20,612 nucleotides of DNA from Candidatus Bathyarchaeum sp. (GTDB taxonomy: Archaea > Thermoproteota > Bathyarchaeia > Bathyarchaeales > Bathyarchaeaceae), in NCBI GenBank assembly GCA_026014495.1, contig JAOZIF010000101.1:1-20612 (forward strand), given 5' to 3'. Shown here piece after piece: positions 2,648-20,612 of this stretch. The translations under genes and the position numbers were made by a program. The notes below the pieces were generated by a model. It worked only from the letters and a program-made list of their open reading frames with translations, searched no databases and was not told the origin of the DNA. Numbering within the stretch: position 1 is the stretch's first letter; the number at the start of each line of letters is the position of its first letter.

Positions 2648-3367
2648 TCAAGCAACCTTTCTAACCAGCTTTTGCGCTTGTTTCAAATCTTGTTTGGTGT
2701 CTATTTCTAAACAAATTTCGTTATCAAAGTATAGTGGATGGAGTAAAAATTTATCCGACATTGTGTTGAAAACAGTTTCAGCATAAATTTTGGTTTTTCG
2801 TTGTTTGATAGCATTTTCAATTGCAGTTAACCATTTCAGATAATCAAATTTTGAAAGTTTGTACATAGGAGCTAAGAAATAGGCGTTTTCACCAAAACAA
2901 TCAACACCAATTCGAATTATTGCCCCATTTTTGATTATGGCTTTAAAGTCTTTTTCAGGAGGAGACATAACTGATTTTTTAACTGGTACACAAGTTGGAT
3001 ATTCTGAGTTTACCAAGTTAACAAGCAATTGTTTTTCAAAAAATAAATCACCGTGCATCAAGATGATGTCATCATCTACGAACTCTCTTGTTAACCACAT
3101 TGAATAGATATAGTTAGTTGTTCGATATTTTTGGTTCTTCACGTAAGTGATGCGCACATCAGGATATTGCTTTTTTACATAGCTTTTTATTTGATTACCA
3201 AACGGCCCAGTTGTTAAGATAAAGGAATTAAAGCCACAATCAATTAACATTTCAAGTTGATAACCAAGAAGAGGCTTAGAATCTATATTCAAAAGAGCTT
3301 TAGGTCGATATCTAGTCATCGGGTATAACCGTGTACCCCGTCCAGAATTCAGTATTATTGCTTTCAT
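2648..3367 (-). CDS. LicC/PntC-like nucleotidyltransferase (probable phosphonate cytidylyltransferase)
   Basis: MKAIILNSGRGTRLYPMTRYRPKALL signature, NYIYSMW, HGDL and terminal EIDTKQDL, all typical of phosphocholine/phosphonyl cytidylyltransferases. Starts 13 nt after the Fe-ADH stop, inside the pepM cassette. Confidence 0.8.
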   Translation of the reverse strand: MKAIILNSGRGTRLYPMTRYRPKALLNIDSKPLLGYQLEMLIDCGFNSFILTTGPFGNQIKSYVKKQYPDVRITYVKNQKYRTTNYIYSMWLTREFVDDDIILMHGDLFFEKQLLVNLVNSEYPTCVPVKKSVMSPPEKDFKAIIKNGAIIRIGVDCFGENAYFLAPMYKLSKFDYLKWLTAIENAIKQRKTKIYAETVFNTMSDKFLLHPLYFDNEICLEIDTKQDLKQAQKLVRKVA

Positions 3368-3380
3368 GGGTGATCACAAG

Positions 3381-4511
3381 TTACAAAATTCTACTTAAAA
3401 TTGCTCGTAACTCATCTGGAGTTACTTCACGTGGATTATTCGCGGCTCTGTCGGGCCTAAACCCTTCATTAATTATCAAATCTATATCTTCACGTTTAAT
3501 TCCAACTTCACTTAACAGGGTAGGCAAAGCTACATCTAAAATAAGCTGTTTAACTTTTTGTACAAAAATATCAATCGTATCCGTACCAACCATTTTAGCC
3601 AGACGCAACATTCGTTCTTCCAACACTTCAGAATTAAACTGAATAAAAGAAGGCAATGTAAAAGAACAGGCTAATCCGTGAGGAACATCAAAAAAAACAG
3701 TCAAAGGATAAGAAACCGCGTGAACAATTGTAGTTTTTGTTATACTAATAGCAAGCCCTGAAAAAAGACTAGCAAGTGCCATATTACGTCTAAAGGTTAG
3801 GTCTTCAGGAAAATTACATGCTCCAACAAGATTCTCGAAAACCAACTTGACACCTTCAATTGCAAAAAGATCACTTACAGGGGTCCGATTTTTGGACCAA
3901 TAAGACTCAATGCATTGTGAAAGAGCATCTAATCCAGTGGTTGCAGTAACAAATTTTGGCATAGTTAGAGTAAGATTTGGATCAATTATAGCCACTTCTG
4001 GACGTATGAAATCACTAGTTAATGATAACTTTTTTTTCAAATTAGCATCTACAATTGAAGCATATTGTGTAACTTCGCTTCCAGTCCCAGAAGTAGTGGG
4101 AATTGCTATAACGGGAATTCCCTTGTTAGCTATTTTTGCAACACAATGAAGATAATTTGACAGAAAAACAGTGTTATTTGCCAAGATGGCTATCGCTTTG
4201 GCAAAGTCAATAACACTTCCGCCACCTAACGCGATCACCAAATCTGCTTCCTCTTTTTCCAAAAAAATTTTTCCATCTTCAACATCATCAACGGTGGGGT
4301 TGTGTGTTGCGTTATCATAAACAACAACTGAACGATTTCCCAGTTGATCTAGAATGTTCTTTGTTACACCAGACTGTTTCATGCTTTGTTTTCCTGTGAC
4401 TAGCAGGATTTTTTTGGGATTAAAAGATTCAGTTATTTCAGCGAGTTTTCCAATTGAGTTTACACCAAAGAGTATCTTTGTCGGTAAGTAGCAGCTCCAA
4501 AGATTCATCAT
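3381..4511 (-). CDS. Iron-containing (group III) alcohol dehydrogenase, probable phosphonoacetaldehyde reductase (PhpC/FomC type)
   Basis: ALGGGSVIDFAK, IPTTSGTGSEVT, DALSQCIESYWS, HAVSYPLT and VPHG motifs. Directly downstream of pepM. The ORF track starts at 4529, but ATG 4511 or 4508 is more likely. Confidence 0.85.
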   Translation of the reverse strand: MMNLWSCYLPTKILFGVNSIGKLAEITESFNPKKILLVTGKQSMKQSGVTKNILDQLGNRSVVVYDNATHNPTVDDVEDGKIFLEKEEADLVIALGGGSVIDFAKAIAILANNTVFLSNYLHCVAKIANKGIPVIAIPTTSGTGSEVTQYASIVDANLKKKLSLTSDFIRPEVAIIDPNLTLTMPKFVTATTGLDALSQCIESYWSKNRTPVSDLFAIEGVKLVFENLVGACNFPEDLTFRRNMALASLFSGLAISITKTTIVHAVSYPLTVFFDVPHGLACSFTLPSFIQFNSEVLEERMLRLAKMVGTDTIDIFVQKVKQLILDVALPTLLSEVGIKREDIDLIINEGFRPDRAANNPREVTPDELRAILSRIL

Positions 4512-4532
4512 GTGTATCGAAGAGTTCAATGA

Positions 4533-6254
4533 TTAATATACCACCTTTTTTGCCATTTCATAGTCTTTCTTATTATGAATTTCCATCCAGCCCTTGTTAG
4601 TCTCGATGTAATTAACAGTAAATCCCCTATCGATCATTTCTTGAATCATATCAACTATTGAAGCTTTACCAAAACTTTCGCTTTCATGAAATCTTCCGCT
4701 ATGATTCTTTAAACAATCGGAATACAATTCTTTTAGATTTTTTGCACCATATTCAGAAAATTTGGCTATACCAATAAATTCATGAGTTGCAATATCTTTT
4801 TTGATTTTCTTGCCGATGTATGTTACCTCTTTTTCAAGAGCAATAGATGGTTGCCGATAGTACCCACCTTCTTGCTTACCAATTAACAAGTCGAGCTCTT
4901 TGTCGATTTCATGCCGATGATAAGGATATGACGCATCAGCAATTAGAACTATATCCGCCGTGCTCTTAAGAAGACTGACGATAATAGATTCGTCAAACAA
5001 AATATCAGAAAATATTAAGAAAAATCCATGATCCATTTCGGCTTGAGCAGAAAACAGGGAGTGAAGTGAACCTGTAGTGTAATCAGGTGCATCATAATAT
5101 TTTACCCCATTGTAACTAAATTTCTCTTTGGCATAACCTCGTACAACTGTTACATCAGCTATTCCACAATGTCTTAACACATCAAGCTGACGCTGCATAA
5201 CCGTTTTTCCGTTTACGTCAAGCATTGCCGAGGGCATACATTCAATAATTGTTTCTTTGGGTTTTCCAGCAGCAGGAATAATTACTTTAGCTTTGCTTTT
5301 GTCGAGTAATAGTTGGAGGTCTCTTTCCTTTATTTTTTCAAAACCAACCATATGCATTATGGTGGTTATTGGAGTGCAGTATGGTTCACTTTCGAAGGCA
5401 CGCCCTTTAAGCAGAATATTTTTGCAGACAGCTTGCATCGATTTTACTGAGGCACGCAACAGGTGATTGGCGTATATGACAATTTTGAACCCATGTTCAC
5501 AAAGTTCTTCTTCCTTGATAGTGTTATAAGTTGTAGGCACACAAATGAGTGGTCTATAAAAACCGATTTTTTCTAATAGCTTCGAATACTCCTTAGCAAA
5601 TTTAAGTACACGCACGGGGTCAGTTTCTCTCGAGTGAATTAGTATTCCATCTGCTCCTGCTTGCAAATATTTTTCTGCACGTAACAACGCATCTTCAACA
5701 TCGAATCCTGCAATCAGGCTCTCTATCCGGGCGAAAATCATGAAATCTTTTGAGAGCAAAGCTTCTTTTCCAAGCCTAATTTTATTTGCAAATACTTCTG
5801 GGGCCTCAAGATTTTGTATTGAACCATCATCCAGACTATTACGTTTAGGATATGTTTTATCTTCTATTACAACAGCTGAAACGCCTAAAAGTTCGAGTCT
5901 ATTTAGAAAATACTCGAAATTAGCGATTTCTCCTCCAGTATCACCATCAACTATCAAGGGCTTGTCAGTAACATTCATTATTCGTTCTATGGTACTAAGT
6001 CTTGAGTCGGGACTAACAAGCTCAATATCTGGAAGTCCTTTTGATGTTGAATCAGTAAAACCACTGCCCCATAAAGCGTCAAATTCTAAAAAGTTGTTCT
6101 CGCCACCGTTTCCTAACTCAAGTTTTACATTATTTGCAACTAATGCGCTGATTCCATCATGAACCTCAATTGCACGTACAAGTTGTTTGTTTTCAAGTAG
6201 AGTTCTCAGTTTGCCGCGTAATTCTTCAGGTGAATGTCGCCGTCTTGCACTCAT
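4533..6254 (-). CDS. pepM: Phosphoenolpyruvate mutase fused to a C-terminal nucleotidyltransferase-like domain
   Basis: PepM-diagnostic EDKxxxxxNS motif (IEDKTYPKRNS), plus EVHDGISAL, DSTSKGLPD, IVDGDTGG, ARIESLIAG, AGADGILIHSR and IYANHLLRAS. The C-terminal ~250 aa (VIIPAAG...RGY...FSDILF...GWMEIHNKKDY) has an NTP-transferase fold. ATG 6254 (MSARR) avoids overlap with the upstream gene. The ORF track gives 6293. Confidence 0.95.
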   Translation of the reverse strand: MSARRRHSPEELRGKLRTLLENKQLVRAIEVHDGISALVANNVKLELGNGGENNFLEFDALWGSGFTDSTSKGLPDIELVSPDSRLSTIERIMNVTDKPLIVDGDTGGEIANFEYFLNRLELLGVSAVVIEDKTYPKRNSLDDGSIQNLEAPEVFANKIRLGKEALLSKDFMIFARIESLIAGFDVEDALLRAEKYLQAGADGILIHSRETDPVRVLKFAKEYSKLLEKIGFYRPLICVPTTYNTIKEEELCEHGFKIVIYANHLLRASVKSMQAVCKNILLKGRAFESEPYCTPITTIMHMVGFEKIKERDLQLLLDKSKAKVIIPAAGKPKETIIECMPSAMLDVNGKTVMQRQLDVLRHCGIADVTVVRGYAKEKFSYNGVKYYDAPDYTTGSLHSLFSAQAEMDHGFFLIFSDILFDESIIVSLLKSTADIVLIADASYPYHRHEIDKELDLLIGKQEGGYYRQPSIALEKEVTYIGKKIKKDIATHEFIGIAKFSEYGAKNLKELYSDCLKNHSGRFHESESFGKASIVDMIQEMIDRGFTVNYIETNKGWMEIHNKKDYEMAKKVVY

Positions 6255-6276
6255 TGATAGAACATCCAAAATAAGG

Positions 6277-6843
6277 TTATCTAGGCAATGCAATTAAAGC
6301 ATTGACAAACCTTTTTGTAATTTCAGTCGGCTCAATTGAAACCCGTGGTACATCCACACGAACATTATCAACTTTGACATGTAAAAACGAGGGGCCTTCT
6401 GAACTAAGGGCTTCAACAAAGTGTTTCTTTAATGTAGTAACAGAATTGACATATTTGCTGTTTTTAATACCAGAAGAACGTGCTATAATGTGAAGCTCGG
6501 TTATGGAACTTGATGTTTGTTGCCCACCAGTGGATTCATGGCATTCGTTATCCAGAACTACGAATATGAAGTTTTTAGGAGATGTTTTCCCAATCGTTGC
6601 AAGAGTACCAAGAGACATTAGAGTGTTTCCGTCACCAGCAAGAATCACGATTTTAGCGTTTGGTTTTGCCAAACTTACACCTAATCCTATTGCAGGAGCC
6701 AAACCCATCGACCCTAGCATATAGAAGTTCTTTTCTTGATCTTTTATTGTAAAAAGTTCCCTGCTTATCATTCCATTACACGAAATGACGAATTCGTTGG
6801 TCAGGCAGGTGGCAATTACTTTGATGGCATCGTATCTTCTCAT
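6277..6843 (-). CDS. Phosphonopyruvate decarboxylase, beta (TPP-binding) subunit; ComE-like
   Basis: NFYMLGSMG, TPP-binding GDG...N motif (GDGNTLMSLG...VVLDNECHESTGGQ) and GPSFLHVKV. ATGA overlap with the alpha subunit. Adjacent to pepM. Confidence 0.88.
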   Translation of the reverse strand: MRRYDAIKVIATCLTNEFVISCNGMISRELFTIKDQEKNFYMLGSMGLAPAIGLGVSLAKPNAKIVILAGDGNTLMSLGTLATIGKTSPKNFIFVVLDNECHESTGGQQTSSSITELHIIARSSGIKNSKYVNSVTTLKKHFVEALSSEGPSFLHVKVDNVRVDVPRVSIEPTEITKRFVNALIALPR

Positions 6844-7328
6844 GTGATTACCCCCTTTTTTAGGATTAATGCAACAGGAGTTTTTTGTTTACACATTTTT
6901 TTTGAAAGCTGGTTCAACTGCTCAGTTAATCGTGTAGTTTCGGCTATTTCAGCAGGAATTTTCATGATATCTAAAAAGTTCATCATGCATTTTCCCATAT
7001 ACAAGTGCTCAGGAGCATCTTTCCCTTCAAAGCCACGCCATGAAATTAGCAGCAACATAGGAATCTTGTATAACAAAGCAAGAGAAGTAAGGGCATTCAC
7101 AGACTGCCCTAATCCAGAGTTCTGCATAAGAACAACAGGCTGTTTTCCAGCCATATATGCACCAACTGCGAGGCCAATTGCTTCATCTTCGCGGGTTGCT
7201 GAAACGTAACTAAAAACATTGTCTTCAGACATGTATTTGATTATTGAGCTTAAAATGGAACAAGGTACACCAGTATAGAAATCGAAACCTCGTGTTTTCA
7301 AAAGCTGACAAAAATGTTCATGATTCAT
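6840..7328 (-). CDS. Phosphonopyruvate decarboxylase, alpha (Pyr-domain) subunit; ComD-like
   Basis: FYTGVPCSIL, ATREDEAIGLAVGAYMAG, LMQNSGLG, ISWRG and PEHLYMG motifs of the Ppd/ComD N-terminal domain. Confidence 0.88.
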   Translation of the reverse strand: MNHEHFCQLLKTRGFDFYTGVPCSILSSIIKYMSEDNVFSYVSATREDEAIGLAVGAYMAGKQPVVLMQNSGLGQSVNALTSLALLYKIPMLLLISWRGFEGKDAPEHLYMGKCMMNFLDIMKIPAEIAETTRLTEQLNQLSKKMCKQKTPVALILKKGVIT

Positions 7329-7362: not shown

Positions 7363-8175
7363 TTATTCCAATCGAGTTTTTAAAGCAATATACTGAGTTA
7401 CTAGAACAACAAAAGAATATGGTACAAGAAATAAATAAGGTAACAAGAATAGATGCATCATTGTTACTTGGTGGTTCCACAAAATGAAGCTAGGAACAAA
7501 CAAGTCTACCAGAGCCAAGAATAAAAACAGAATCACCATATATCCGCTAAAAGTGATCACCGAAGCAATTCTAGCAATCAATTTCCCGATTTGAATAGTA
7601 TATCGGTTAACTAACAAAGAACTACCATTAAAACGGTTTTCAACCTGATCGTTAGTAAGACCAGATTCCGTCTTTGACACATTTTTAGAGGATTTATACA
7701 ATGTCCAACAGTAATTAGCCATTATAAATTCGCAAACTATCAGAACCAGACAATCTATGAAACCTAGAAACAGCACAGATGTCTGACTGAAAACGTTAAA
7801 CAAATAAAAGGCTACACCAAAAGGTACCATAGCCACGATTAGATAATCAAAAGTGATTTCTAAGAAAAAACCAGTTGGGGTTTTCATGTTTTTATATCTG
7901 GCGACTTCCCCGTCAACATGGTCAAATACGCTCCAAAGGAAAAGGACAACAGCCGCAACAAAGATATCAACAGGCGTTTGCGCAATAAGCAACAACAAAA
8001 CACTAAGTATCCCAATACCAAAATCAATCACAGTAATGTGATTAGGAGTAACAGAATCCCACTTCTGTAGAATTATCCAACTCAAACGAGCAGATATTGG
8101 CCTAGCAATATATTTAGCGTATAACCTATCGTCGTTTTTAACAACCTTTTTCACGTATTCTGAGTAGCTTTCCAT
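7363..8175 (-). CDS. CDP-alcohol phosphotransferase family membrane protein
   Basis: RPIS...VTPNHIT N-terminal element and the signature DHVDGEVARx8GFFLEITFD (DxxDGxxAR...GxxxD/ExxxD). About six hydrophobic segments. Confidence 0.88.
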   Translation of the reverse strand: MESYSEYVKKVVKNDDRLYAKYIARPISARLSWIILQKWDSVTPNHITVIDFGIGILSVLLLLIAQTPVDIFVAAVVLFLWSVFDHVDGEVARYKNMKTPTGFFLEITFDYLIVAMVPFGVAFYLFNVFSQTSVLFLGFIDCLVLIVCEFIMANYCWTLYKSSKNVSKTESGLTNDQVENRFNGSSLLVNRYTIQIGKLIARIASVITFSGYMVILFLFLALVDLFVPSFILWNHQVTMMHLFLLPYLFLVPYSFVVLVTQYIALKTRLE

Positions 8176-8336: not shown

Positions 8337-9425
8337 TCAATTTAGTATTCTCCGAAATATCTGTTCAACATTATCAACAGTCTTATCCCATGTAAACTGG
8401 TTTGCAGTTTTTGGTCCTTCTTTTCTGAAATATTCACTTAAGTGCTCATCTTTGAGCAAACGAATTATTGCATCTGCAAGCGACTTGGGACTTCGTGGAG
8501 GAACCACCAAAGCATTTTTCCCATCAAAGGCATAGTCTTCAGTTCCAAATCTTGTTGTAACAGTAGGACTTCCACAGGCCATAGCCTCTAATGGTGGCAA
8601 AGGAAAACTTTCAAACCAAGATGGACAAATGGTAACATCAGCTGTGCGGTATAAGTCTGCTAACTCTTCATCACTTGGGTTTGTATAGAAGATGTGTGGA
8701 AACGGTTCGTGTAATTGAATTGGTTTTCGGCCATAAACCCAAAATTCAACATTATCCATGTGTTTGTTTACAAGTTTCATTGCGTGGATTGCATCGTTAA
8801 AACCCTTCCAAGGCAACTGTCGCCCCCCAAAACACAGAACTATTCGTTTGTCACTTTTTTTGTTAACACCTCGTGGAAAGAAGATTTTATGGTTAATTGC
8901 AGGGTTTACTACAGGTAAATCATAACCATATCGTTCTTTCATGTTGTTATGCAACCAAATACTATTTACCAATCTTTTGATTGGGAGATTATATGCCTCA
9001 TCACACACAGCTTTAGCCGCTGGGTCAGAAGATATTACTAACTCGTCATGCTGCATATAATGAAACGGAACACCCATATTTGACTCAAAAATAGGAAAAA
9101 CATCCCCATACGAGTGTGCTATGTTCAAATCACATTCGGGAAGCCATTTAGAAACAGATGTTCTAATTGCAGCATATCCATCTAAATCGTAAGCAGAAAA
9201 CTTCCGTAACATACGGCAAAGCCCTAGTACAAACAGGTTCCTTTTTGCAAACTTTGCCTGATTAAAAGCAATTTTTTTGTCCAACATGAATGGTGAACGG
9301 CTTGGCAACATTGAGGTAATAGTCACGTCATGACCTTTTGCGACTAAACCATTCAGAACGTTAGTGATTACTCTGAAGCCCCCATTGCCCTCGTCAAAAG
9401 TTAAAGTCAGATAATGTATGTTCAT
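8337..9425 (-). CDS. Glycosyltransferase family 4 (GT-B)
   Basis: GGFRVI N-terminal loop, KGFNDAIHA and the EX7E motif ESFPLPPLEAMACG. Confidence 0.9.
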   Translation of the reverse strand: MNIHYLTLTFDEGNGGFRVITNVLNGLVAKGHDVTITSMLPSRSPFMLDKKIAFNQAKFAKRNLFVLGLCRMLRKFSAYDLDGYAAIRTSVSKWLPECDLNIAHSYGDVFPIFESNMGVPFHYMQHDELVISSDPAAKAVCDEAYNLPIKRLVNSIWLHNNMKERYGYDLPVVNPAINHKIFFPRGVNKKSDKRIVLCFGGRQLPWKGFNDAIHAMKLVNKHMDNVEFWVYGRKPIQLHEPFPHIFYTNPSDEELADLYRTADVTICPSWFESFPLPPLEAMACGSPTVTTRFGTEDYAFDGKNALVVPPRSPKSLADAIIRLLKDEHLSEYFRKEGPKTANQFTWDKTVDNVEQIFRRILN

Positions 9426-9426
9426 T

Positions 9427-12240
9427 TCATTTACTCACTTCGAGTTTGTCAATTAGTAGAGACATGTCCCCAGTTACATCGGTAAATTGAATGCTTATAT
9501 GTGTAACAGCAGACAGATCAGGATTGCCTCGAACAGTCACAAAAGCCATAAGAGGAATTTTGATAAATCGCCAACCATCCCAATCAAAAGTAAAACTAAT
9601 TTTTGTTGAATCATCAGGAGTTGGAGCCATCATATATATTATAAATTTTGCTGCAGAACCGTCGCCATGAAGGTAGAAACTGATGTAATTTTCTGAGCTT
9701 AAATCTAAGGCATCCTCAAAAGTTCTGTAAAAACCAACTCGACCATTCGTTCCGTTGCTAATTCGGGCTTCTGTAGAATAGTTTCCACTAATTTTATTAT
9801 CTCTTTGAGAAGAGAGAACGGGTATTCCTAAAGTCCCATCTAATTCTCCAAAAGTGGACCAAAAGGTTGCTTGCTCATCATCAGCGATTAACGTTGGATT
9901 TTGAATGTCGTACTCGTCAACGTTGTAGGTGTACTTGTATACTGTACCAGAGATTGTTGCTAAATCAAATTTAAAAAAGTAAAACTTGTAATCAGTTCCT
10001 ATAACGGTATAGTCTGCCGCGAATTCTTTCAGTTTTTCAAAATTATCAAGCACCAAAGAGCTCCCTTTAACATACCAATCTTCGGTAACGAAAAAGGCAA
10101 TAGTGGAATTGGTTGCAACCATACTTTTTGTGATTAAAAAGGGGTCGGGGTTAAGAAGTAATAAACTTGTTGAATCACGTACAGTTCCAGCAGCAAGAGC
10201 TAAATTAGGTTCATCATCAACATATCGGTAACCCAAATTTCCTGCAACAAGTTTAGGAATAAATCCATTGGCTAAAATACAGTAATTTTCTGTTCCTGAT
10301 GATGAATTTATAAGTTGAACAATTTTCATCTCATCAGCGGATACAGTTCGCCATGTTGGGCGACCAGGTTCAGCAGGAACATTTTTGTCAAATAACGGAA
10401 TGGAATAAGCCAGATAAAAAGACGATAACATTCCAAATATGCTTAAAGTCAACAAAATAAATGCAAATATTTTTTTCTGTGAAAACAGTATTGGAAGTTT
10501 TTTTGCCAAATTTAATTTGAAGTTGTTAATTTTATCCAAGGAAGCATTGTTTATGTCAACAAAGAACCGGTCTACTGTTGAGAATATATACAAAATGAAA
10601 GCAGCAAAAGGAATCAGGGAAATGTCAACAACTCTAGCAAACCTGTGAGTCCCATAAGGAAGATTTGTTATTCCACTTACAACGATGAACCAACTAAACA
10701 AGAAAACCAGCACTGTAAAAAAAAGCCACATACCAGTTCGCTTTTTCGCATCATTTTTGATCAATTTTATTGAACAAAATCCGCCAAACAACAAAACGTA
10801 CCTAATCCAATTAAAGCTCTCAGAACAAATTGAATCAGCTGTCAACTCGTTAGTTAACCAATGCGTCGATAACCAAAAGTCTTTGATAGATTCTAGACTT
10901 GGAAGTTGTATTTGAAATGGGTTGTTATTAAAGAGCAAACCTTGCACAACTGTAAATTGTATTGGAAACAGTAATAACCCTAAAAATATAACAAGCAATA
11001 ATAGAATATAACGACCATTTTTCATACGCCAGATTTTAAAGTGAAAAGGCAGGGCAAGTAAATCGGCAATCAATGCAAAAGTTCCAGAAAATGGATGAAT
11101 AAGAACAGTAGCGATAGTTGTCAAACTAACTAAGAATAACCCACGATAGGGCGTATTATCGGAAATAAAGAAAGTTATGAAAAAAAGATTGACATAAAGG
11201 AATATAACACCAACCATCTCTGCTACTGACACACTAATAAGCCAAAAAGTTGGAAATACCATAAACCCAATTAAACCAAGTAAGAAAACGTGACTATTGT
11301 TAACACTAAAGAACAGTTTTTTCAAGAAATGATATGTCACCAAAGGAATGAAAATACTTGCAAACAGAGGACTCCATAACCAAGTAACGTTTTTCATCAC
11401 AGTTAAATTGAAACTTGTTCCTTCAAACACAGCAATTGTCGCAAGAAACGATTGATACCCACTGTAAGGGATTACAAGACTGGAACCAGTTGGGTCTCGA
11501 CCACCCAGTTCAAATATGACTCTAACACCCGACAGCAAGCCCCAAACGTCTGGGTCAAAAGATATTTTTACAACTAAAACAAGCAAACCAAAATACAAAA
11601 ATGCAATTAAGAAACTCGAAATAATGGATATCTCAAAACAAAACGCTTTGTTTTGAATTCTTTTTTGAAGGAAAACAAAGGCAAAAATGTTCACACCCAT
11701 GAACAGCCAGAAATATGACGGCAAAACTTCCCAAACAGAAAAGAACATCGCGTCAGTTCGTGAGCTTATAATTATAACTAATAAGCTTAGAAAACTAGCA
11801 CCAAAAATTATTACTGCACTAAAATCAACAGCGGTCCAAACATCTTTTGGCGAGATAGAAATAGATTCATTCTCTGTATTGCGGTTATAACATGTTTTGA
11901 TTTTTTGTGCTAATATAAGAAACAAGGGTAAAAACAGCATAGGTAATATTGCATGCACACGGTCGAACATTTTAAGAATTGTAATCAAACCTTCAAAAGC
12001 TATTATCCAGCAGACCACAATAAATGCTCCAAAAAGGAGTTGACTAATTTTAGGTTCTTCTTTGAAAAATAGGTTTCCAGACCATAAGCCACAGCATATT
12101 ATGTATGCAAGTAGTGTAAGTGTGCCCAAATAAGGCGATGGAAAACAGAAAAGGCTCAAAGCAAGTGGAAGTAACAGTATGACAGATGCTATAGGGTATT
12201 TCAAGCGCAAAATAGTGCGTGAGTCGAATTCAGTCAACAT
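9427..12240 (-). CDS. Large polytopic membrane protein, possibly GT-C fold, with a C-terminal CBM11/CIA30-like beta-sandwich domain
   Basis: About 16 hydrophobic segments by eye in the first ~610 aa. Acidic loop FDPDVWG, intramembrane IHP and HRF motifs. The soluble tail LDLSSENYISFYLHGDGS...FDWDGWRFIKIPL..F...PDLSAVTHISIQF resembles CBM11-type modules. The ORF is certain, the function is not. Confidence 0.55.
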   Translation of the reverse strand: MLTEFDSRTILRLKYPIASVILLLPLALSLFCFPSPYLGTLTLLAYIICCGLWSGNLFFKEEPKISQLLFGAFIVVCWIIAFEGLITILKMFDRVHAILPMLFLPLFLILAQKIKTCYNRNTENESISISPKDVWTAVDFSAVIIFGASFLSLLVIIISSRTDAMFFSVWEVLPSYFWLFMGVNIFAFVFLQKRIQNKAFCFEISIISSFLIAFLYFGLLVLVVKISFDPDVWGLLSGVRVIFELGGRDPTGSSLVIPYSGYQSFLATIAVFEGTSFNLTVMKNVTWLWSPLFASIFIPLVTYHFLKKLFFSVNNSHVFLLGLIGFMVFPTFWLISVSVAEMVGVIFLYVNLFFITFFISDNTPYRGLFLVSLTTIATVLIHPFSGTFALIADLLALPFHFKIWRMKNGRYILLLLVIFLGLLLFPIQFTVVQGLLFNNNPFQIQLPSLESIKDFWLSTHWLTNELTADSICSESFNWIRYVLLFGGFCSIKLIKNDAKKRTGMWLFFTVLVFLFSWFIVVSGITNLPYGTHRFARVVDISLIPFAAFILYIFSTVDRFFVDINNASLDKINNFKLNLAKKLPILFSQKKIFAFILLTLSIFGMLSSFYLAYSIPLFDKNVPAEPGRPTWRTVSADEMKIVQLINSSSGTENYCILANGFIPKLVAGNLGYRYVDDEPNLALAAGTVRDSTSLLLLNPDPFLITKSMVATNSTIAFFVTEDWYVKGSSLVLDNFEKLKEFAADYTVIGTDYKFYFFKFDLATISGTVYKYTYNVDEYDIQNPTLIADDEQATFWSTFGELDGTLGIPVLSSQRDNKISGNYSTEARISNGTNGRVGFYRTFEDALDLSSENYISFYLHGDGSAAKFIIYMMAPTPDDSTKISFTFDWDGWRFIKIPLMAFVTVRGNPDLSAVTHISIQFTDVTGDMSLLIDKLEVSK

Positions 12241-12350: not shown

Positions 12351-13268
12351 CTAAATCTTTCCAGACTTGTTTAGGGTTACGAAAGACTTGGGCAAAACTG
12401 CTTGCCCGTAGCTGTTTGTTGTGAAATCATAGAACCCTTTTAACATTGCCCGTGCTAAGATGATGTTTCTATACTTTGCCAAGTAATTGAAAAGTCTAAA
12501 ACCAAAACGGGGAATCCATAAAACAAAGAATAGTGGGTTGAGGTGTTTCCTTGCGAAGAGGAGCTCATTTCTTGTCGAGTAGTATAAAACAGACGGATTA
12601 ACTCGCCCACTAAATGAATATGATACTTTGTGGTATGTTTTAGCAGATGGAACGTGCAGTATTTTGTATCCAGCCACTCTTACACGGTGACATAAATCAG
12701 CCTCATCAAAATAAAGAAAAAATTTTGTGTCCATTAAACCTATTTTCTGGATAACACTTTTTTTGATTAGAATACAAGCTCCAGGGATTAAGTTGACTTC
12801 TTCGGGTTTTCGAATGTTAATTAATGGTGTATAGCCAACACCCAAGTAAAAGTTGTAATTGCCATATTTTGTATAAAGGCTGTCTGGTTTTTCAAAAAAG
12901 AATAGTCTGGGACTTGTTATTCCAATTTTTGGGTCAGTTTCAGACGCAGCAACTAACTCATTTAAGAAAGAGGGGTCAACATCCATATCATCATTTAGAA
13001 TTAAAATATAATCACTTTGCAGTTTTTCAAGGGCATAATGTATCCCTACATTATTACCGCCCGTGTATCCCAAGTTCTGTGAAGTTTCTAGCAATACAAC
13101 AGAAGGAAAATGTGAGTTAACCATGGATGCAGTTCCATCGGTTGAGTTGTTGTCGACAACAACGATTTTGTAGTTTGAGTAGCTGATATTAAGAACAGAC
13201 TCTATACAACTTTGCAAAACTTTCTTTTTGTTATAAGTAACAATAATGACCGAAACAGATGGCTCCAT
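12351..13268 (-). CDS. Glycosyltransferase family 2 (WbbL/GlfT1-like)
   Basis: VSVIIVTYN, VVVDNNSTDG, NLGYTGGNN, LILNDDMDV (DxD), GACILI and YFDEADLCHR. Its ATG directly follows the TAA of the upstream GT4. Confidence 0.9.
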   Translation of the reverse strand: MEPSVSVIIVTYNKKKVLQSCIESVLNISYSNYKIVVVDNNSTDGTASMVNSHFPSVVLLETSQNLGYTGGNNVGIHYALEKLQSDYILILNDDMDVDPSFLNELVAASETDPKIGITSPRLFFFEKPDSLYTKYGNYNFYLGVGYTPLINIRKPEEVNLIPGACILIKKSVIQKIGLMDTKFFLYFDEADLCHRVRVAGYKILHVPSAKTYHKVSYSFSGRVNPSVLYYSTRNELLFARKHLNPLFFVLWIPRFGFRLFNYLAKYRNIILARAMLKGFYDFTTNSYGQAVLPKSFVTLNKSGKI

Positions 13269-14621: not shown

Positions 14622-15854
14622 TTACTCCAATATCAAACGTTTTTTGACCATTTGACTCAAAACAGAAGATAGCCTATGAGAGATCTTCTGTTCACAATGA
14701 TTGCTTTTCACGTAGAGGTACCCATTTTTTCCAACACTTTTTGCAAAGTCATCGTGCTTTAATATTTTAATGGTATTCTTTGCAAACTGATTAATTTCTG
14801 AGTATATTATGCCGTGTTCTGGACCAAAAAGTAAGGAAACCATTCCTGGCAGAGGTGTAGCCAAAACTGGTTTAGCACAAGCAAGATATTGTATTACTTT
14901 TCCAGGGATAATATCCTGAGTGGTTGAATTAATTAAGAATGGGTTGATACAAACATCCGCTATGTTGATGAACTGAGGCATCAATTCAAACGGTTCAAAC
15001 CCAGTAAGAATTACATTTTCTTTGAGGTTTAGTTCAGTAACAAGTTCCTTGAGTTTATTCAACAGAATGCCGCCTCCAACTATTACCAATTTCACGTTAG
15101 GAACTTCTTTCACAACTTTTGGGAACTGTTTGATATACAAATCTAGACCTGAGAACTCAAATAAAGTTCCGATGAAAACTACGATTTTATGTTCTTTTGT
15201 TAGTCCTAATCTTTGCTTGAGTTTTTGAGTACCAACACCAGAATTGAAAGCATTTGTATCAACACAAAAGGGAAGCATTTCTACGTTGTCTTTTTCAGCA
15301 CCCAATCGTATCACATATTCTGAAAGTTTTGGAGATAACGTCAAAATTTTATCTACGTGTTTGTATACCCATTTTTCAAGAGAAAAAGTGATTGGTCTTA
15401 AAGCCTTAGTGGGAACCAACATGTGTAAAGTGTCTATTGATCTAAAAAGTACAGGAACATTATATTTCCCAGCAAGTTTTACAGTCTGATAACCATTGGT
15501 AGGAACTGAATACAAAATTATTATGTCAATTTCCTTTTCGTTGATAACCCGTTCGATTTCAAAGTAGTGAGTAAACAACGCAGTTGCTCGGTCAACAAAA
15601 GGTGTTTTAATAAAACCCGGTCGAATCAAAGTTGTTGAAGACCCATTAGTTGTTCTACTAATGTTATCAAAGACCTTTGTTTTTAAAGAACCAATATCAA
15701 GTACATTTTCTTTACTCCATTCATGCTCAAAATCAATAACATACACGTTGTGCCCTAAACTAGACAACATCTCTGACCAGCTATGAATCTCAAAAACAAC
15801 TTTTTTGAGCAAATCAACTTCATGAATAAAAAGAATATTCAAGAGGCAACTCAC
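14622..15854 (-). CDS. Glycosyltransferase family 4 (GT-B)
   Basis: VVFIGTLFEFSGLD, IVGGG, ILTGFEPF, ADVCINPF and PGKVIQYLACAKPVLAT. GTGA overlap with the radical SAM gene. Confidence 0.87.
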   Translation of the reverse strand: MSCLLNILFIHEVDLLKKVVFEIHSWSEMLSSLGHNVYVIDFEHEWSKENVLDIGSLKTKVFDNISRTTNGSSTTLIRPGFIKTPFVDRATALFTHYFEIERVINEKEIDIIILYSVPTNGYQTVKLAGKYNVPVLFRSIDTLHMLVPTKALRPITFSLEKWVYKHVDKILTLSPKLSEYVIRLGAEKDNVEMLPFCVDTNAFNSGVGTQKLKQRLGLTKEHKIVVFIGTLFEFSGLDLYIKQFPKVVKEVPNVKLVIVGGGILLNKLKELVTELNLKENVILTGFEPFELMPQFINIADVCINPFLINSTTQDIIPGKVIQYLACAKPVLATPLPGMVSLLFGPEHGIIYSEINQFAKNTIKILKHDDFAKSVGKNGYLYVKSNHCEQKISHRLSSVLSQMVKKRLILE

Positions 15855-17248
15855 TTAACCAGATCAATAAGCATACGTAAACCTGCAACATTTGTCTTCA
15901 TGTCCGTTATTGAACCCAATTTTTTTATCCGCTTCCACAGATATGCGCCCCTAAAGTAAAAAGAAGAATAAGCTTTTTTGTTCCATTTCCTTAATTCTTC
16001 TGGGCTTAAGGTTGCTGTTTTGAATGTTGGGTAATCCATAGACTTCAAATCGGCATAAACATACTTTTTCCACTCAGTAGGCACATAACCATCTTTTACT
16101 GCGAGGTCATAAAGGTCAGTTCCAGGATATGGAGTGGTCAAAGAAAACTGAACGAAATCAGGATCAATCTTTTTAGCAAATTCAATTGTGTCCCTGATAG
16201 TGTTGGGTGTTTCTCCGGGAGCACCGATCATGAAATATGCCACAGTGTCAATTCCTGCGGCTTTTGTATTTTTGAAAGCATCAACTATCTGGTTAAGAGT
16301 TATATCTTTTCTAAGGTTGTTAAGAATTGTTTGGTTACCAGATTCGATGCCATATTCAATCATGTAACAACCAGATTCTTTCATAAGATTTAGCAGGCGT
16401 GAATTTACTAAATTAACTCTAGTTTCACATGTCCAAGGAATGTCTAAACCAAGTTCTTTCATTTTATTGCAAAGAGCAACAATTCGTTTCTTGTCTAAGG
16501 TGAATACATCGTCATAGAATTTTATTTCTTTAATACCAAATTTTTCAATTAACAACTGAATCTCAGCGATCACGTAATCTGCACTGTTTCCACAATATTT
16601 CCTGCCAAAAACAGATTTTGAACAAAAAATACACCGGTAAGGACATCCTCGACTAGTAATAATTGGCATAGCAGGTGATCGGCGCCCAAAAGGAGGGTGT
16701 AAACGGTATTTATCCATTAATAATAAATCAAAAGCAGGATAAGGTAAAGAATCAAGATCCAAAATGGGCATTCTTTCTGGGTTACTTTTGATAATGTTTC
16801 CCGACCGATAAGTTATTCCAGAAACATCCTTAAGACCAGACATCTGATTTGCACCGAAAACTTTGACCAACTCAAGCATGGTCTGTTCACCCTCTCCACG
16901 CACAACTACATCTATTGCAGAAGTGTTACGCAATGTCTCTTCAGGAAGTATCGTGCCATGAGCACCACCAAGAACAACCGGAATATCACTGTTAGATGCT
17001 TTCACTATCTCAGCTGTCTTAATTGCCGAATCAATCTCAGGAGTAAGAGCGGTTATTCCAACAACATCAGGTTGTTCTTTTGCTACTGTTGATGAAATCA
17101 CCTTTTCAGACAAACCCAAAGCAGGCAAATCCAATACATCTATGTCGTATCCGTTTTTCAACAAAACTGCTCCAATCATAGCCAAACCAAGAGGCGGCTG
17201 CGGATATTTTGTCGAGTGGAAAGGATTAATTAGTAAAATTTTCTGCAT
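15851..17248 (-). CDS. Cobalamin-binding (class B) radical SAM protein, probable methyltransferase
   Basis: N-terminal B12-binding domain (PPLGLAMIGAVL, PDVVGIT, VVLGGAHGT, VVRGEGE), CxxxCxxC motif (SRGCPYRCIFC), FYDDVF, GIESGNQ, YFMIGAPGET and PYPGT. ATG 17248 is the likely start. The ORF track gives TTG 17260. Confidence 0.92.
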   Translation of the reverse strand: MQKILLINPFHSTKYPQPPLGLAMIGAVLLKNGYDIDVLDLPALGLSEKVISSTVAKEQPDVVGITALTPEIDSAIKTAEIVKASNSDIPVVLGGAHGTILPEETLRNTSAIDVVVRGEGEQTMLELVKVFGANQMSGLKDVSGITYRSGNIIKSNPERMPILDLDSLPYPAFDLLLMDKYRLHPPFGRRSPAMPIITSRGCPYRCIFCSKSVFGRKYCGNSADYVIAEIQLLIEKFGIKEIKFYDDVFTLDKKRIVALCNKMKELGLDIPWTCETRVNLVNSRLLNLMKESGCYMIEYGIESGNQTILNNLRKDITLNQIVDAFKNTKAAGIDTVAYFMIGAPGETPNTIRDTIEFAKKIDPDFVQFSLTTPYPGTDLYDLAVKDGYVPTEWKKYVYADLKSMDYPTFKTATLSPEELRKWNKKAYSSFYFRGAYLWKRIKKLGSITDMKTNVAGLRMLIDLVK

Positions 17249-17385
17249 TAGTTCAACCAAAAAGAGGCACTAAATTACTTTTGTTTAACACAATCTGCGA
17301 TAAGCGCCTACAAAAAACTAGAAGCTTTGTAAGCATTATCCTAAACTTAATAAAATTGGGAGCTACAACAACAAACAACATGTTA

Positions 17386-19436: not shown

Positions 19437-19754
19437 TCATTTAGATACATTTTTAGTAATTCTTGTAATTTTGAAAATCACTGTACCACCGTCGGTGTAT
19501 GGTTGCCCTGGATCAACACATTGAATGTAAGCATGCTCTTTATCTATTGACTTTGTCAAACCTAGTTTTACTGGATCAGCACCAGATTCTAAAATCAACA
19601 CATAATGCAACAACGATGAAAGTGCGTGTGTACAAAGAGCATCAGTTCTATGCAACAAAATTTTTGGGTCATCAATAATTATTTTGTCTCCAACGTTGTG
19701 AACTGGGCACTTGCCTTTAATCGCACATACTTCAATTTCTAACATTCGTAACAC
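19437..19754 (-). CDS. TIGR04076-like small cysteine-containing protein of unknown function
   Basis: Pattern I.V..IKG.CP..VGDKI...LC.HAL...CVDPG...GGTVIFKI matches my recollection of TIGR04076. The start may be ATG 19745. Confidence 0.7.
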   Translation of the reverse strand: MLRMLEIEVCAIKGKCPVHNVGDKIIIDDPKILLHRTDALCTHALSSLLHYVLILESGADPVKLGLTKSIDKEHAYIQCVDPGQPYTDGGTVIFKITRITKNVSK

Positions 19755-19765
19755 ACAACTTTAGC

Positions 19766-20612
19766 CTAAGTTCGGTTCCCATTCTTTTGGGTATGTCTAG
19801 AAATTGCGTAAAGTGTAATTGCGGTAAATACCATGAACATTCCTATAATAGTAAAAGCGATTGAAGCCAAAGCAATATTTGTTATTATTTGCTGTTGTTC
19901 AATAAACACTTTTAACATCCAAGTTCCAAAACCAATTCCCGCAAACAAGAAAAACAATCCTGGCAAACCCAACAATGTTAGAGGCTTCTTTTCTACAACC
20001 AATTGAATAATGGACATAAACACGCTTGCGCCATGCCCAATTGGATTATGAGTAGATGTTTGCTCTAACTTGTCATATTTGCATGCTGCGGAAACCTCAA
20101 TAACTCTTAAATCCTGATTCTTGGCTTTCACTAGAATTTCGACACTGGACCCCATACCGTTTTCAACAAGGTTTAGACCACCCAGAGCCCTTTGTCCGTA
20201 TACTCTGAAGCCACACTGAGCGTCTTTGAATTCATGATTAGCCGCAGCTCCAGTTAATTTTGAAATGAATTTTATACCCAAGCTTCTGTATCTTGGAACA
20301 CCATTGGTTTTTTTGTCAGCATCCAAAAAACGTGACCCTAAAACGATATCTGCCTCATTTTCCAAGATGGGTTTTATCAATTTTGGAATTTCTCGCGGGT
20401 CATGTTGGCCATCCCCATCAAGAGTAATTAAAACATCAGCTTTTAGTTCTCTTGCTGTTGTGAACAAAGTTTTGATTGCGGCACCATATCCCATATTTTT
20501 GTCATGTCTAACTACGTCAGCACCTAATCTTTTTGCGATTTCTGCGGTCATGTCTGTTGAGCCGTCGTCACAGACTAAAACAACGTCAGCATATTTTTGT
20601 GTCTCTAACACT
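19766..20612 (-). CDS. Polyprenol-phosphate glycosyltransferase (DPM1-like GT2) with two C-terminal TM helices; 5' end lies outside the window
   Basis: VCDDGSTD, NMGYGAA, ITLDGDGQHDP, IVLGSRF and DAQCGFR, followed by two hydrophobic helices. The first GT-A strand (IPAYNE-type) is missing, so GTG 20611 is an internal codon. Confidence 0.88.
   Translation of the reverse strand, partial: VLETQKYADVVLVCDDGSTDMTAEIAKRLGADVVRHDKNMGYGAAIKTLFTTARELKADVLITLDGDGQHDPREIPKLIKPILENEADIVLGSRFLDADKKTNGVPRYRSLGIKFISKLTGAAANHEFKDAQCGFRVYGQRALGGLNLVENGMGSSVEILVKAKNQDLRVIEVSAACKYDKLEQTSTHNPIGHGASVFMSIIQLVVEKKPLTLLGLPGLFFLFAGIGFGTWMLKVFIEQQQIITNIALASIAFTIIGMFMVFTAITLYAISRHTQKNGNRT

Follow-up and report, generated by a model that had tools for sequence, protein, structure and literature searches.

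The stretch of DNA analysed here (the window) comprises 20,612 nucleotides of contig JAOZIF010000101.1, from the Candidatus Bathyarchaeum sp. assembly GCA_026014495.1, and all of its long open reading frames lie on the minus strand. It contains a gene for an enzyme of the cytidine diphosphate (CDP)-alcohol phosphotransferase family, located at the head of a gene cassette predicted to supply activated 2-hydroxyethylphosphonate (HEP). From its sequence and surroundings, this transferase is the best candidate for the step that attaches HEP to the cell surface. The transferase, its family signature and the genes that follow it are, in order:

7363 to 8175, minus strand: CDP-alcohol phosphotransferase, candidate hydroxyethylphosphonyl transferase (protein P0001), ATG start, 270 amino acids (aa).
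7846 to 7923, minus strand: signature of the transferase, D85xxD88G89xxA92R93-x8-G102xxxE106xxxD110, with residues 85-110 reading D-H-V-D-G-E-V-A-R-x8-G-F-F-L-E-I-T-F-D.
6840 to 7328, minus strand: phosphonopyruvate decarboxylase alpha (ppd-alpha, TPP_enzyme_N); TIGR03297 at 149 bits, its top match, under the whole-protein cut-off.
6277 to 6843, minus strand: phosphonopyruvate decarboxylase beta (ppd-beta, TPP_enzyme_C); TIGR03297 at 181 bits and sulfopyruvate decarboxylase beta at 191, both under the cut-off.
4533 to 6293, minus strand: phosphoenolpyruvate (PEP) mutase (PepM) with a C-terminal NTP_transf_3 domain (PF12804, PntC-type) at residues 356-452; TIGR02320 at 327.7 against a cut-off of 319.55.
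3381 to 4529, minus strand: iron-containing alcohol dehydrogenase (Fe-ADH), likely a phosphonoacetaldehyde reductase making HEP; TIGR03405 at 275 bits, its top NCBIfam match, under the cut-off.
2648 to 3367, minus strand: stand-alone nucleotidyltransferase (NTP transferase), IPCT-half-like; NF041135 profile positions 1-218 at 59.7 bits.

The 270-aa transferase matched Pfam family PF01066 (CDP-OH_P_transf) over residues 43-155 at 42 bits, the cut-off being 22. Eight signature residues, D1xxD2G1xxAR...G2xxxD3xxxD4, are absolutely conserved in characterised enzymes of the family (PMC4634129). Seven of them are kept in the window enzyme, D4 being D110, and only the third aspartate, D3, differs: it is replaced by a glutamate, which is still a carboxylate. 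This substitution, to which the original prediction had drawn attention, was confirmed by translation, by the codon itself (GAA, 7858-7860) and by a HMMER alignment to AF2299 that places Glu106 opposite the third aspartate and D110 opposite the fourth. Since seven of the eight residues are present, the transferase was filed as a divergent, superfamily-level member rather than as a canonical enzyme. A cytosine-binding motif, P(D/N)xx(T/S), is found upstream of the signature as P-N-H-I-T at residues 44-48. The best solved relatives by sequence were AF2299 (56 bits) and IPCT-DIPPS (41 bits), and the top Foldseek matches of the structure model were AF2299 (TM-score 0.55), DIPPS (0.53) and PIPS, all with probability 1.0 and TM-scores of 0.53-0.56. 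A search for longer homologues revealed no fused form of the transferase, which is weak evidence.

Only 34 nt separate the transferase gene from ppd-alpha, and a gap of 161 nt separates it from the glycosyltransferase gene upstream; its earlier description as standing directly before ppd-alpha and leading the phosphonate cassette is therefore apt. The genes after ppd-alpha overlap (ppd-alpha and ppd-beta by 4 nt) or sit 3-13 nt apart. The PepM fusion is the sole pepM of the genome, and its nearest genomic relatives, in three metagenome-assembled genomes (MAGs) of Bathyarchaeia, are 72-73% identical. The beta gene was assigned to phosphonopyruvate decarboxylase (Ppd) because it adjoins PepM. 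The cassette has Fe-ADH and is without an aminotransferase. The stand-alone NTP transferase, which is kept in like cassettes at five other loci (L093, L094, L100, L102 and L103), is a second candidate, by sequence, for the activating cytidylyltransferase. Thus PepM (above its equivalog cut-off), Ppd, Fe-ADH and a cytidylyltransferase are present in one operon, the components expected of a cassette supplying cytidine monophosphate (CMP)-activated HEP, CMP-HEP, if its predicted products are correct.

Three further PF01066 genes occur in the genome. Two of them (L002 and L003) carry the canonical D...D-R motif, group with DIPPS/AIPS-like sequences of Thermococcus and Thermoproteota on the far side of the tree from the transferase, and lie outside the 99%-supported clade that contains it; the third has a very long branch and an unstable position in the tree. 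When the transferase was compared with NCBIfam profiles, it scored 51 against a cut-off of 180 for archaetidylinositol-phosphate synthase (NF040950), 20 against 109 for TIGR00560, and far under the cut-offs for PIP synthase and PgsA. Judging by these scores and the tree, we conclude that the transferase is not a housekeeping archaetidylinositol-phosphate, PGP or PS synthase; grouping with the first two of these, the outcome that the original prediction had named as contrary to it, was not observed. The transferase is not a member of the IPCT/DIPPS family (NF041135) either: it scores 52.9 against a cut-off of 580, the two halves of that family are separate genes here, and the residue after D4 is tyrosine. 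The stand-alone NTP transferase nevertheless matches the IPCT part of the profile and the transferase the DIPPS part, so the operon holds a split version of the IPCT/DIPPS pairing. The proposed donor logic, a cytidylyltransferase beside a CDP-alcohol transferase as in IPCT/DIPPS, holds in this respect, and we conclude that the window enzyme probably resembles IPCT/DIPPS in donor logic, yet is not a member of the family.

The residue that follows D4 bears on the acceptor. PIP synthases invariably have Arg or Lys here, and in PgsA1 the residue is crucial to the binding of the acceptor phosphate (PMC6506517). The DIPPS/AIPS-like group has Arg at this position, while the window transferase has Tyr and each of the 12 members checked of the clade to which it belongs (12/12) has Tyr, Phe or Ile. 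This makes a neutral hydroxyl, which may belong to a sugar or a lipid, a more probable acceptor than an anionic compound such as HEP, inositol phosphate or glycerol phosphate. The replacement of the anionic-acceptor Arg (PMC6506517) argues against the reverse polarity, in which CDP-archaeol would be the donor and free HEP the acceptor, yielding archaetidyl-HEP. Most prokaryotic members of the family do use CDP-linked lipids, and the transferase scores almost alike against archaetidylinositol-phosphate synthase (51 bits) and DIPPS (53). Such a reaction, however, would leave the conserved PepM-fused or adjacent cytidylyltransferases idle, and the transferase is far in the tree from the two canonical housekeeping paralogues. 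We consider this polarity very improbable.

To place Glu106 in an evolutionary context, relatives of the transferase were collected. When 1.84 billion representatives were searched exhaustively with HMMER, just six proteins fell under 1e-30. No close relatives were found in the species-representative genome collection, where the best match was 32% identical; metagenome contigs were therefore used for the comparison of gene context. Glutamate at D3 is invariant in eight close relatives (42-54% identity), in four distant members (ca. 25-30%), which read L-E-(L/M/V) at this position, and in L108, a relative from the class Bathyarchaeia. It is thus neither a one-off change nor a sequencing error. 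The 13 sequences (12 plus L108) form a clade, hereafter the Glu clade, with 96-98% support in FastTree and IQ-TREE. Its sister, a clade of six members that keep Asp, has 98-99% support, and the node joining the two has 99%. In the wider family of ca. 270-aa proteins, Glu at D3 is found in 24 of 158 sequences, scattered over several separate lineages. Of 401 genomes sampled from the class, two contained pepM and two a protein matching the clade profile at more than 100 bits, which makes the module a rare accessory trait.

The changed residue lies at the catalytic centre. In PgsA1, the third aspartate binds the two Mg ions and takes part with D4 in a carboxylate shift during catalysis (PMC6506517). 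The window enzyme could thus be catalytically impaired, or a non-enzymatic protein such as a scaffold, as a consequence of its changed signature; D4 is also missing (His, Ala or Gly) in many relatives from the wider ca. 270-aa family. Against this, Glu retains the carboxylate, and the rest of the signature and the nucleotide-binding motif are invariant over a clade that diverges to 25-30% identity, which points to purifying selection on the active site. Loss of catalysis is the least probable of the explanations that we considered. Glu106 keeps the metal-bridging carboxylate on a longer arm, and a re-tuning of the site for a donor with a phosphorus-carbon (P-C) bond is a matter of speculation.

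A separate observation concerns the wider branch of ca. 260-290-aa PF01066 proteins (P0017-P0158; loci L005-L084). In these proteins D4, the presumed catalytic base, is most often His (61 of 158 sequences), and it is Ala or Gly in a Streptomyces/Kitasatospora group. A D4N substitution nearly abolishes the activity of a PIP synthase (PMC4634129), so these proteins must either rely on a different base or have a different function.

Linkage to pepM was assessed at Glu-clade loci with enough flanking DNA to judge. Nine loci, the window included, were informative in this sense; the contigs of four further proteins (P0015, P0020, P0024 and P0035) are too short to inform on pepM. The cassette genes recovered at the nine loci were as follows:

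Window: pepM, ppd, Fe-ADH.
L085 (P0002): pepM, ppd, Fe-ADH.
L086 (P0007): pepM, ppd, Fe-ADH.
L093 (P0011): pepM, ppd, Fe-ADH.
L094 (P0012): pepM, ppd, Fe-ADH.
L095 (P0013): Ppd and Fe-ADH, then the contig end.
L087-89: no pepM in ca. 20 kb; NTP transferase 36% identical to the PepM-fused domain, MFS transporter, metallophosphatase.
L090: no pepM in ca. 14 kb; IspD-like cytidylyltransferase.
L108: no pepM in 3.2 kb; TagD-like cytidylyltransferase, MFS transporter.

Genes of the pepM/ppd/Fe-ADH cassette are therefore present at six of the nine loci (Ppd and Fe-ADH only at L095), and the synteny with pepM in relatives, on which the prediction depended, was found. In reference genomes, pepM lies within 10 kb at four of 80 loci of distant family members. 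Sequence comparisons indicated that this linkage does not reflect a single inherited operon. The window cassette is 60-74% identical to those of L093 and L094, whose transferases are only 28-30% identical to that of the window; conversely, the transferases of L085 and L086 are 43-54% identical to the window enzyme, while their cassettes are only 33-47% identical. The L085/L086 cassettes are of the Fom1 type, with an N-terminal CTP_transf_like domain (PF01467) fused to PepM and a single-chain Ppd, and the Fom1-type cytidylyltransferase is the only one there, no second nucleotidyltransferase being found near the transferase. We conclude from these identities that the association has been re-assorted. 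Both subclades occur with both cassette types, which argues for functional coupling. A nucleotidyltransferase is found at every informative locus of the clade, beside the transferase in two cases, a few genes off in one, and in the cassette in the rest; at the pepM loci of the clade, a nucleotidyltransferase domain is fused to PepM.

The nature of the donor can be addressed from these data. The Fom1 fused domain cytidylylates HEP, and PntC enzymes of family PF12804 cytidylylate 2-aminoethylphosphonate (AEP) (PMC6697681). AF2299 and IPCT-DIPPS use soluble CDP-alcohol donors and process no lipids, and AF2299 binds CDP-glycerol (PMC4634129). Given the nucleotidyltransferase at every informative locus, the chemistry of Fom1 and PntC, and the presence of Fe-ADH without an aminotransferase, we infer that CMP-HEP would be the most economical donor.

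Alternatively, the donor could be a common CDP-alcohol such as CDP-glycerol or CDP-ribitol, supplied by the stand-alone NTP transferase, from which the transferase would add a phospho-alcohol to a glycan, CMP-HEP being used by another, unrecognised transferase; adjacency to pepM would then reflect a shared glycan island. At the sister-clade locus L097, a single 3-kb contig, the neighbours of an Asp enzyme are an NTP transferase and a glycerol-3-phosphate dehydrogenase, a combination that could provide CDP-glycerol. L087, L090 and L108 have cytidylyltransferases and no pepM, the window itself encodes two nucleotidyltransferases, and L093 has LicD and a phosphodiesterase-family gene whose product may perhaps be able to handle the phosphonate. 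These observations are offset by several others. No phosphotransferase candidate besides the transferase was found on the 20.6-kb contig, the transferase is operonic with ppd, L085 and L086 have just the PepM-fused Fom1-type cytidylyltransferase near the transferase, and linkage to pepM outlasts the re-assortment of cassette types. An ordinary CDP-alcohol donor is decidedly unlikely in our estimate.

An MFS transporter was observed beside the cytidylyltransferase/transferase pair at L087:12118-16127, L103:7696-9804 and L108:2-939, two of these three loci being without pepM. It could serve in salvage of an external phosphonate or alcohol phosphate (as in Lic systems) or as a lipid flippase.

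Two loci outside the Glu clade extend the comparison. In another Bathyarchaeia MAG (L102), PepM is 71% identical to that of the window and the cassette is flanked by two highly divergent PF01066 genes, whose motifs end in G-K-Y-L-E-T-I-N-E and G-R-Y-L-E-G-I-H-N, D3 being Glu in both and D4 being Glu or Asn. The pair is placed in a different part of the tree and thus represents an independent Asp-to-Glu change next to pepM. These two genes (L102:13240-15159, ca. 29 bits each) are divergently transcribed and stand directly beside ppd-alpha, with GT2-family glycosyltransferase genes following. The second locus, L101, comes from a genome of the same genus (G202), where the PepM fusion is 72% identical and no third PF01066 paralogue is present; no ppd or Fe-ADH was found within 10 kb on either side of pepM, the stretch that was checked. 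A counterpart of the transferase is missing from this genome as well, which makes it a natural control and speaks for the link between transferase and HEP cassette. There, pepM is followed by genes for an Ldh/Mdh-like dehydrogenase, PAPS-reductase-family and EF-Tu-like (CysN-type) proteins and a phosphodiesterase-family protein, and the product may be phosphonolactate-type or sulfated rather than HEP.

A plain statistic of pepM against Glu was rejected because of phylogenetic non-independence, and lineages were counted instead. Two of seven pepM-adjacent lineages carry Glu. Aspartate is kept at D3 in the pepM-adjacent homologues of L103 (an archaeon) and of the bacterial loci L005, L010, L014 and L021; D4 is His or Gly in those whose motif is regular, and the L014 motif has a longer insert. 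As a marker of phosphonate context the glutamate thus stands in part: it marks the clade and re-arose in L102, but the bacterial and L103 homologues have Asp, and three Glu loci are without pepM in the DNA recovered. By these counts, Glu at D3 is neither necessary for association with pepM nor proven sufficient for it. The substitution coincides with a change of the accompanying donor cassette, from a phosphate-ester to a phosphonate type, and it recurs in L102; seen in two lineages, this is suggestive.

The transferase and its cassette are set among genes of glycan synthesis. The principal ones are:

8337 to 9425, minus strand: GT4-family glycosyltransferase, upstream neighbour of the transferase.
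9427 to 12240, minus strand: 937-aa polytopic membrane protein with no assigned family; ca. 15 predicted helices, an alpha/beta region and a C-terminal beta-sandwich (weak CBM11/CIA30).
12351 to 13268, minus strand: GT2-family glycosyltransferase, first gene of the recurring block.
19766 to 20611, minus strand: AglJ/dolichyl-phosphate-hexose-synthase-like GT2; TIGR04182 at 120 bits and NF058614 at 112 bits, both under the cut-off.

The first three, together with the transferase, make up a recurring four-gene block (GT2, ca. 930-aa membrane protein, GT4, transferase). Upstream of the transferase, adjacent or a few genes off, a GT4 gene is present at nearly all loci of the Glu clade and its sister clade, and a fragment of a GT4-family gene precedes the more distant relative P0024. 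Matches of the window GT4 to MshA, BshA and GlcNAc-PG synthase mainly cover its C-terminal nucleotide-sugar domain, and no clue to the acceptor was drawn from them. The 937-aa protein is 47-59% identical in L085, L086, L087, L093 and L094; in L090 its counterpart is a shorter, 372-aa form. Neither a Pfam match for residues 1-700 nor an NCBIfam family was found for it. Language-model neighbours (DUF6541, DUF2206 and PMT_2, at 0.92-0.97) make a GT-C-like character a lead only; hhalign against a PMT_2 protein gave a probability of 0.2, and the structure model (pLDDT 49.7) was unusable. The AglJ-like GT2 provides context suggesting that a lipid-linked sugar pathway operates within the cluster. Two more GT4s, a B12/radical-SAM enzyme and two sugar epimerase/dehydratases are encoded further upstream, and the other end of the window is closed by rmlA and a UDP-galactopyranose-mutase-like flavoenzyme. 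By its predicted gene content, the window is a surface-glycan island with an HEP cassette in it.

Several neighbouring genes deserve separate mention. The B12-binding radical-SAM gene (15851-17260) recurs at L093:7387-8922, the products being 41% identical. A Fom3-like role was not assigned to it: NCBIfam matches were under the cut-off, and the closest of the solved proteins is AprD4 diol dehydratase (116 bits), not a methylase, so the enzyme may act in sugar deoxygenation rather than in Fom3-style methylation of CMP-HEP. A class I S-adenosylmethionine-dependent methyltransferase is encoded between or beside the GT4 and transferase genes in L085, L087, L090 and L093 and is absent from the window. 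A 105-aa protein of the TIGR04076 family (19437-19754, 67 bits) is encoded between the AglJ-like GT2 and the sugar epimerases. The flavoenzyme at the end of the cassette (1220-2554) is a flavin amine-oxidase/UDP-galactopyranose-mutase-like protein of PRK07208 type (216 bits, under the cut-off), and no homologue of it was seen in related loci by tblastn.

We propose, with a probability of roughly 45%, that the transferase uses CMP-HEP as donor and places a hydroxyethylphosphonyl group on a membrane-anchored glycoconjugate precursor. PepM and Ppd would convert PEP to phosphonoacetaldehyde, Fe-ADH would convert this to HEP, and the PepM-fused or the stand-alone nucleotidyltransferase would produce CMP-HEP. 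The transferase, which is probably active, would then move the hydroxyethylphosphonyl group to a hydroxyl at the cytoplasmic face, with release of CMP. The acceptor would most likely be a dolichol-linked sugar or oligosaccharide made by the neighbouring glycosyltransferases and decorated before export. It is gene context only that points to a glycan as the acceptor. HEP and methylphosphonate occur on polysaccharides and glycoproteins (evidence summarised in PMC8942020 and PMC8931226), and it is this precedent, together with the glycan island, that favours decoration of a lipid-linked sugar.

The evidence for the donor is identical if the group instead goes to a free hydroxyl on a membrane alcohol, archaeol or another, giving a phosphonolipid or lipid anchor in the manner of eukaryotic choline/ethanolamine phosphotransferases acting on CMP-AEP and diacylglycerol. 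The HEP hydroxyl might in this case be glycosylated by the adjacent GT4 and the chain extended outside, producing a lipoglycan like the mycobacterial PI/PIM/LAM series (phosphatidylinositol, its mannosides and lipoarabinomannan; made with PgsA1, PimA, GT2 and GT-C enzymes). GT4 precedes the transferase across the Glu clade, its sister clade and beyond, GT2s and the large polytopic membrane protein are conserved alongside it, MFS transporter genes turn up repeatedly next to those of the nucleotidyltransferase or the transferase, and bacterial clusters of pepM, CDP-alcohol transferase and NTP transferase have been drawn in this way (PMC5987646). The window enzyme is also ca. 70 residues longer than the six-transmembrane-helix (six-TM) housekeeping paralogues, with probably one helix more. 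On the other hand, its closest solved relatives, AF2299 and IPCT-DIPPS, process no lipids, the enzyme is only marginally similar to the eukaryotic CEPT1 and CHPT1 (25.7 and 20 bits), the surroundings are those of a typical surface-glycan island, and assignment of the 937-aa protein to GT-C enzymes is unconfirmed. Phosphonates go unmentioned in the main text on a database of archaeal lipids from 2025, which was built on 79 head groups from the literature. We regard a lipid acceptor as the strongest alternative, though less probable than a glycan.

Several points weigh against transfer of HEP to a glycan precursor, as favoured here. The sequence does not separate a sugar acceptor from a lipid acceptor; of the three chemistries first suggested, CDP-archaeol onto HEP is disfavoured, while transfer from CMP-HEP to a sugar or to a lipid are inseparable by this means. 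In the literature, bacterial clusters that hold pepM and a CDP-alcohol transferase are by default read as phosphonolipid pathways (PMC5987646), and no biochemical characterisation of any pepM-linked CDP-alcohol transferase was found in the literature searched. The Glu clade is not strictly phosphonate-bound, since L087-89, L090 and L108 are without pepM in the recovered DNA. A lost or changed activity through the D3-to-Glu change is conceivable, because D3 is among the residues called absolutely conserved. Finally, the structure model of the transferase, with a pLDDT of 70.7, is of moderate quality only.

A bolder proposition is that the glutamate marks a lineage adapted to P-C donors, that with the window enzyme the family would gain its first prokaryotic phosphonyl transferase, and that this enzyme founds an HEP-linked glycoconjugate, possibly a phosphonolipid-anchored lipoglycan glycosylated at the HEP hydroxyl. 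We consider this combination unlikely.

The route of phosphonates from an activated nucleotide to cell-surface molecules is an acknowledged gap, and "phosphonyl tailoring" steps have been called enigmatic (PMC6697681). Polysaccharide esters of HEP and methylphosphonate are a large marine phosphorus pool and a source of methane (PMC8942020, PMC8931226). The Glu clade is a compact candidate for the step of phosphonyl attachment, and comparison of its members, with their HEP cassettes, to the Asp sister clade, with a glycerol-phosphate pair at one locus, could reveal how a di-metal site adapts to a P-C donor. Bathyarchaeia, which are abundant sediment archaea, are added to the likely phosphonate producers; no paper tying Bathyarchaeota to phosphonates was found in the literature searched. 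Clusters that combine pepM with genes for a CDP-alcohol phosphatidyltransferase and an NTP transferase are known, having been drawn for Nostoc and Burkholderia as putative phosphonolipid pathways (PMC5987646). New are the Glu clade, the Asp sister clade with its ordinary phospho-alcohol-type context, the linkage re-assorted over two types of HEP cassette, and the GT2/membrane protein/GT4 block.

Among known systems, AF2299 (PDB 4O6M, 4O6N, 4Q7C) and IPCT-DIPPS (4MND) resemble the window transferase in being polytopic, with the signature on TM2/TM3, and in pairing soluble CDP-alcohol donors with a cytidylyltransferase. Unlike in IPCT-DIPPS, the window cytidylyltransferase is separate or fused to PepM and never joined to the transferase. 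The window enzyme further differs from both in the Glu at D3, the absence of Arg after D4, the ca. 70 extra residues and the inferred phosphonate donor. CEPT1 and CHPT1 share the superfamily and the chemistry, transfer of a CDP-activated head group to a neutral lipid alcohol, and differ in their ten-TM architecture and canonical Asp residues. Enzymes of the choline/ethanolamine phosphotransferase type make phosphonolipids from CMP-AEP in ciliates. The pepM clusters of Nostoc and Burkholderia (PMC5987646, Figure 7), which are biochemically uncharacterised, have PepM, Ppd, a nucleotidyltransferase and a PF01066 enzyme in common with the window. They make AEP through a transaminase and are read as phosphonolipid pathways, whereas the window cassette is HEP-type, archaeal and located in a glycosyltransferase block; the pepM-adjacent bacterial homologues compared have Asp at D3 and His or Gly at D4, where the window enzyme has Glu and Asp. 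The Fom1/Fom2/FomC and PntC systems (PMC6697681) share with the window the logic leading from PEP through phosphonopyruvate, phosphonoacetaldehyde and HEP to CMP-HEP, as well as a PepM-fused cytidylyltransferase, and have no known downstream phosphonyl transferase of the PF01066 family. The fused domain is C-terminal PF12804 (PntC-type, shown for AEP) in the window and N-terminal PF01467 (Fom1-type) in L085 and L086. LicD belongs to an unrelated family and is absent from the window, and LicD-like genes occur in L093 and, together with pepM, in oral bacteria (PMC6697681). The LicC/LicD system nonetheless resembles the window in combining a cytidylyltransferase with a transferase that places a small phospho-group on surface glycans.

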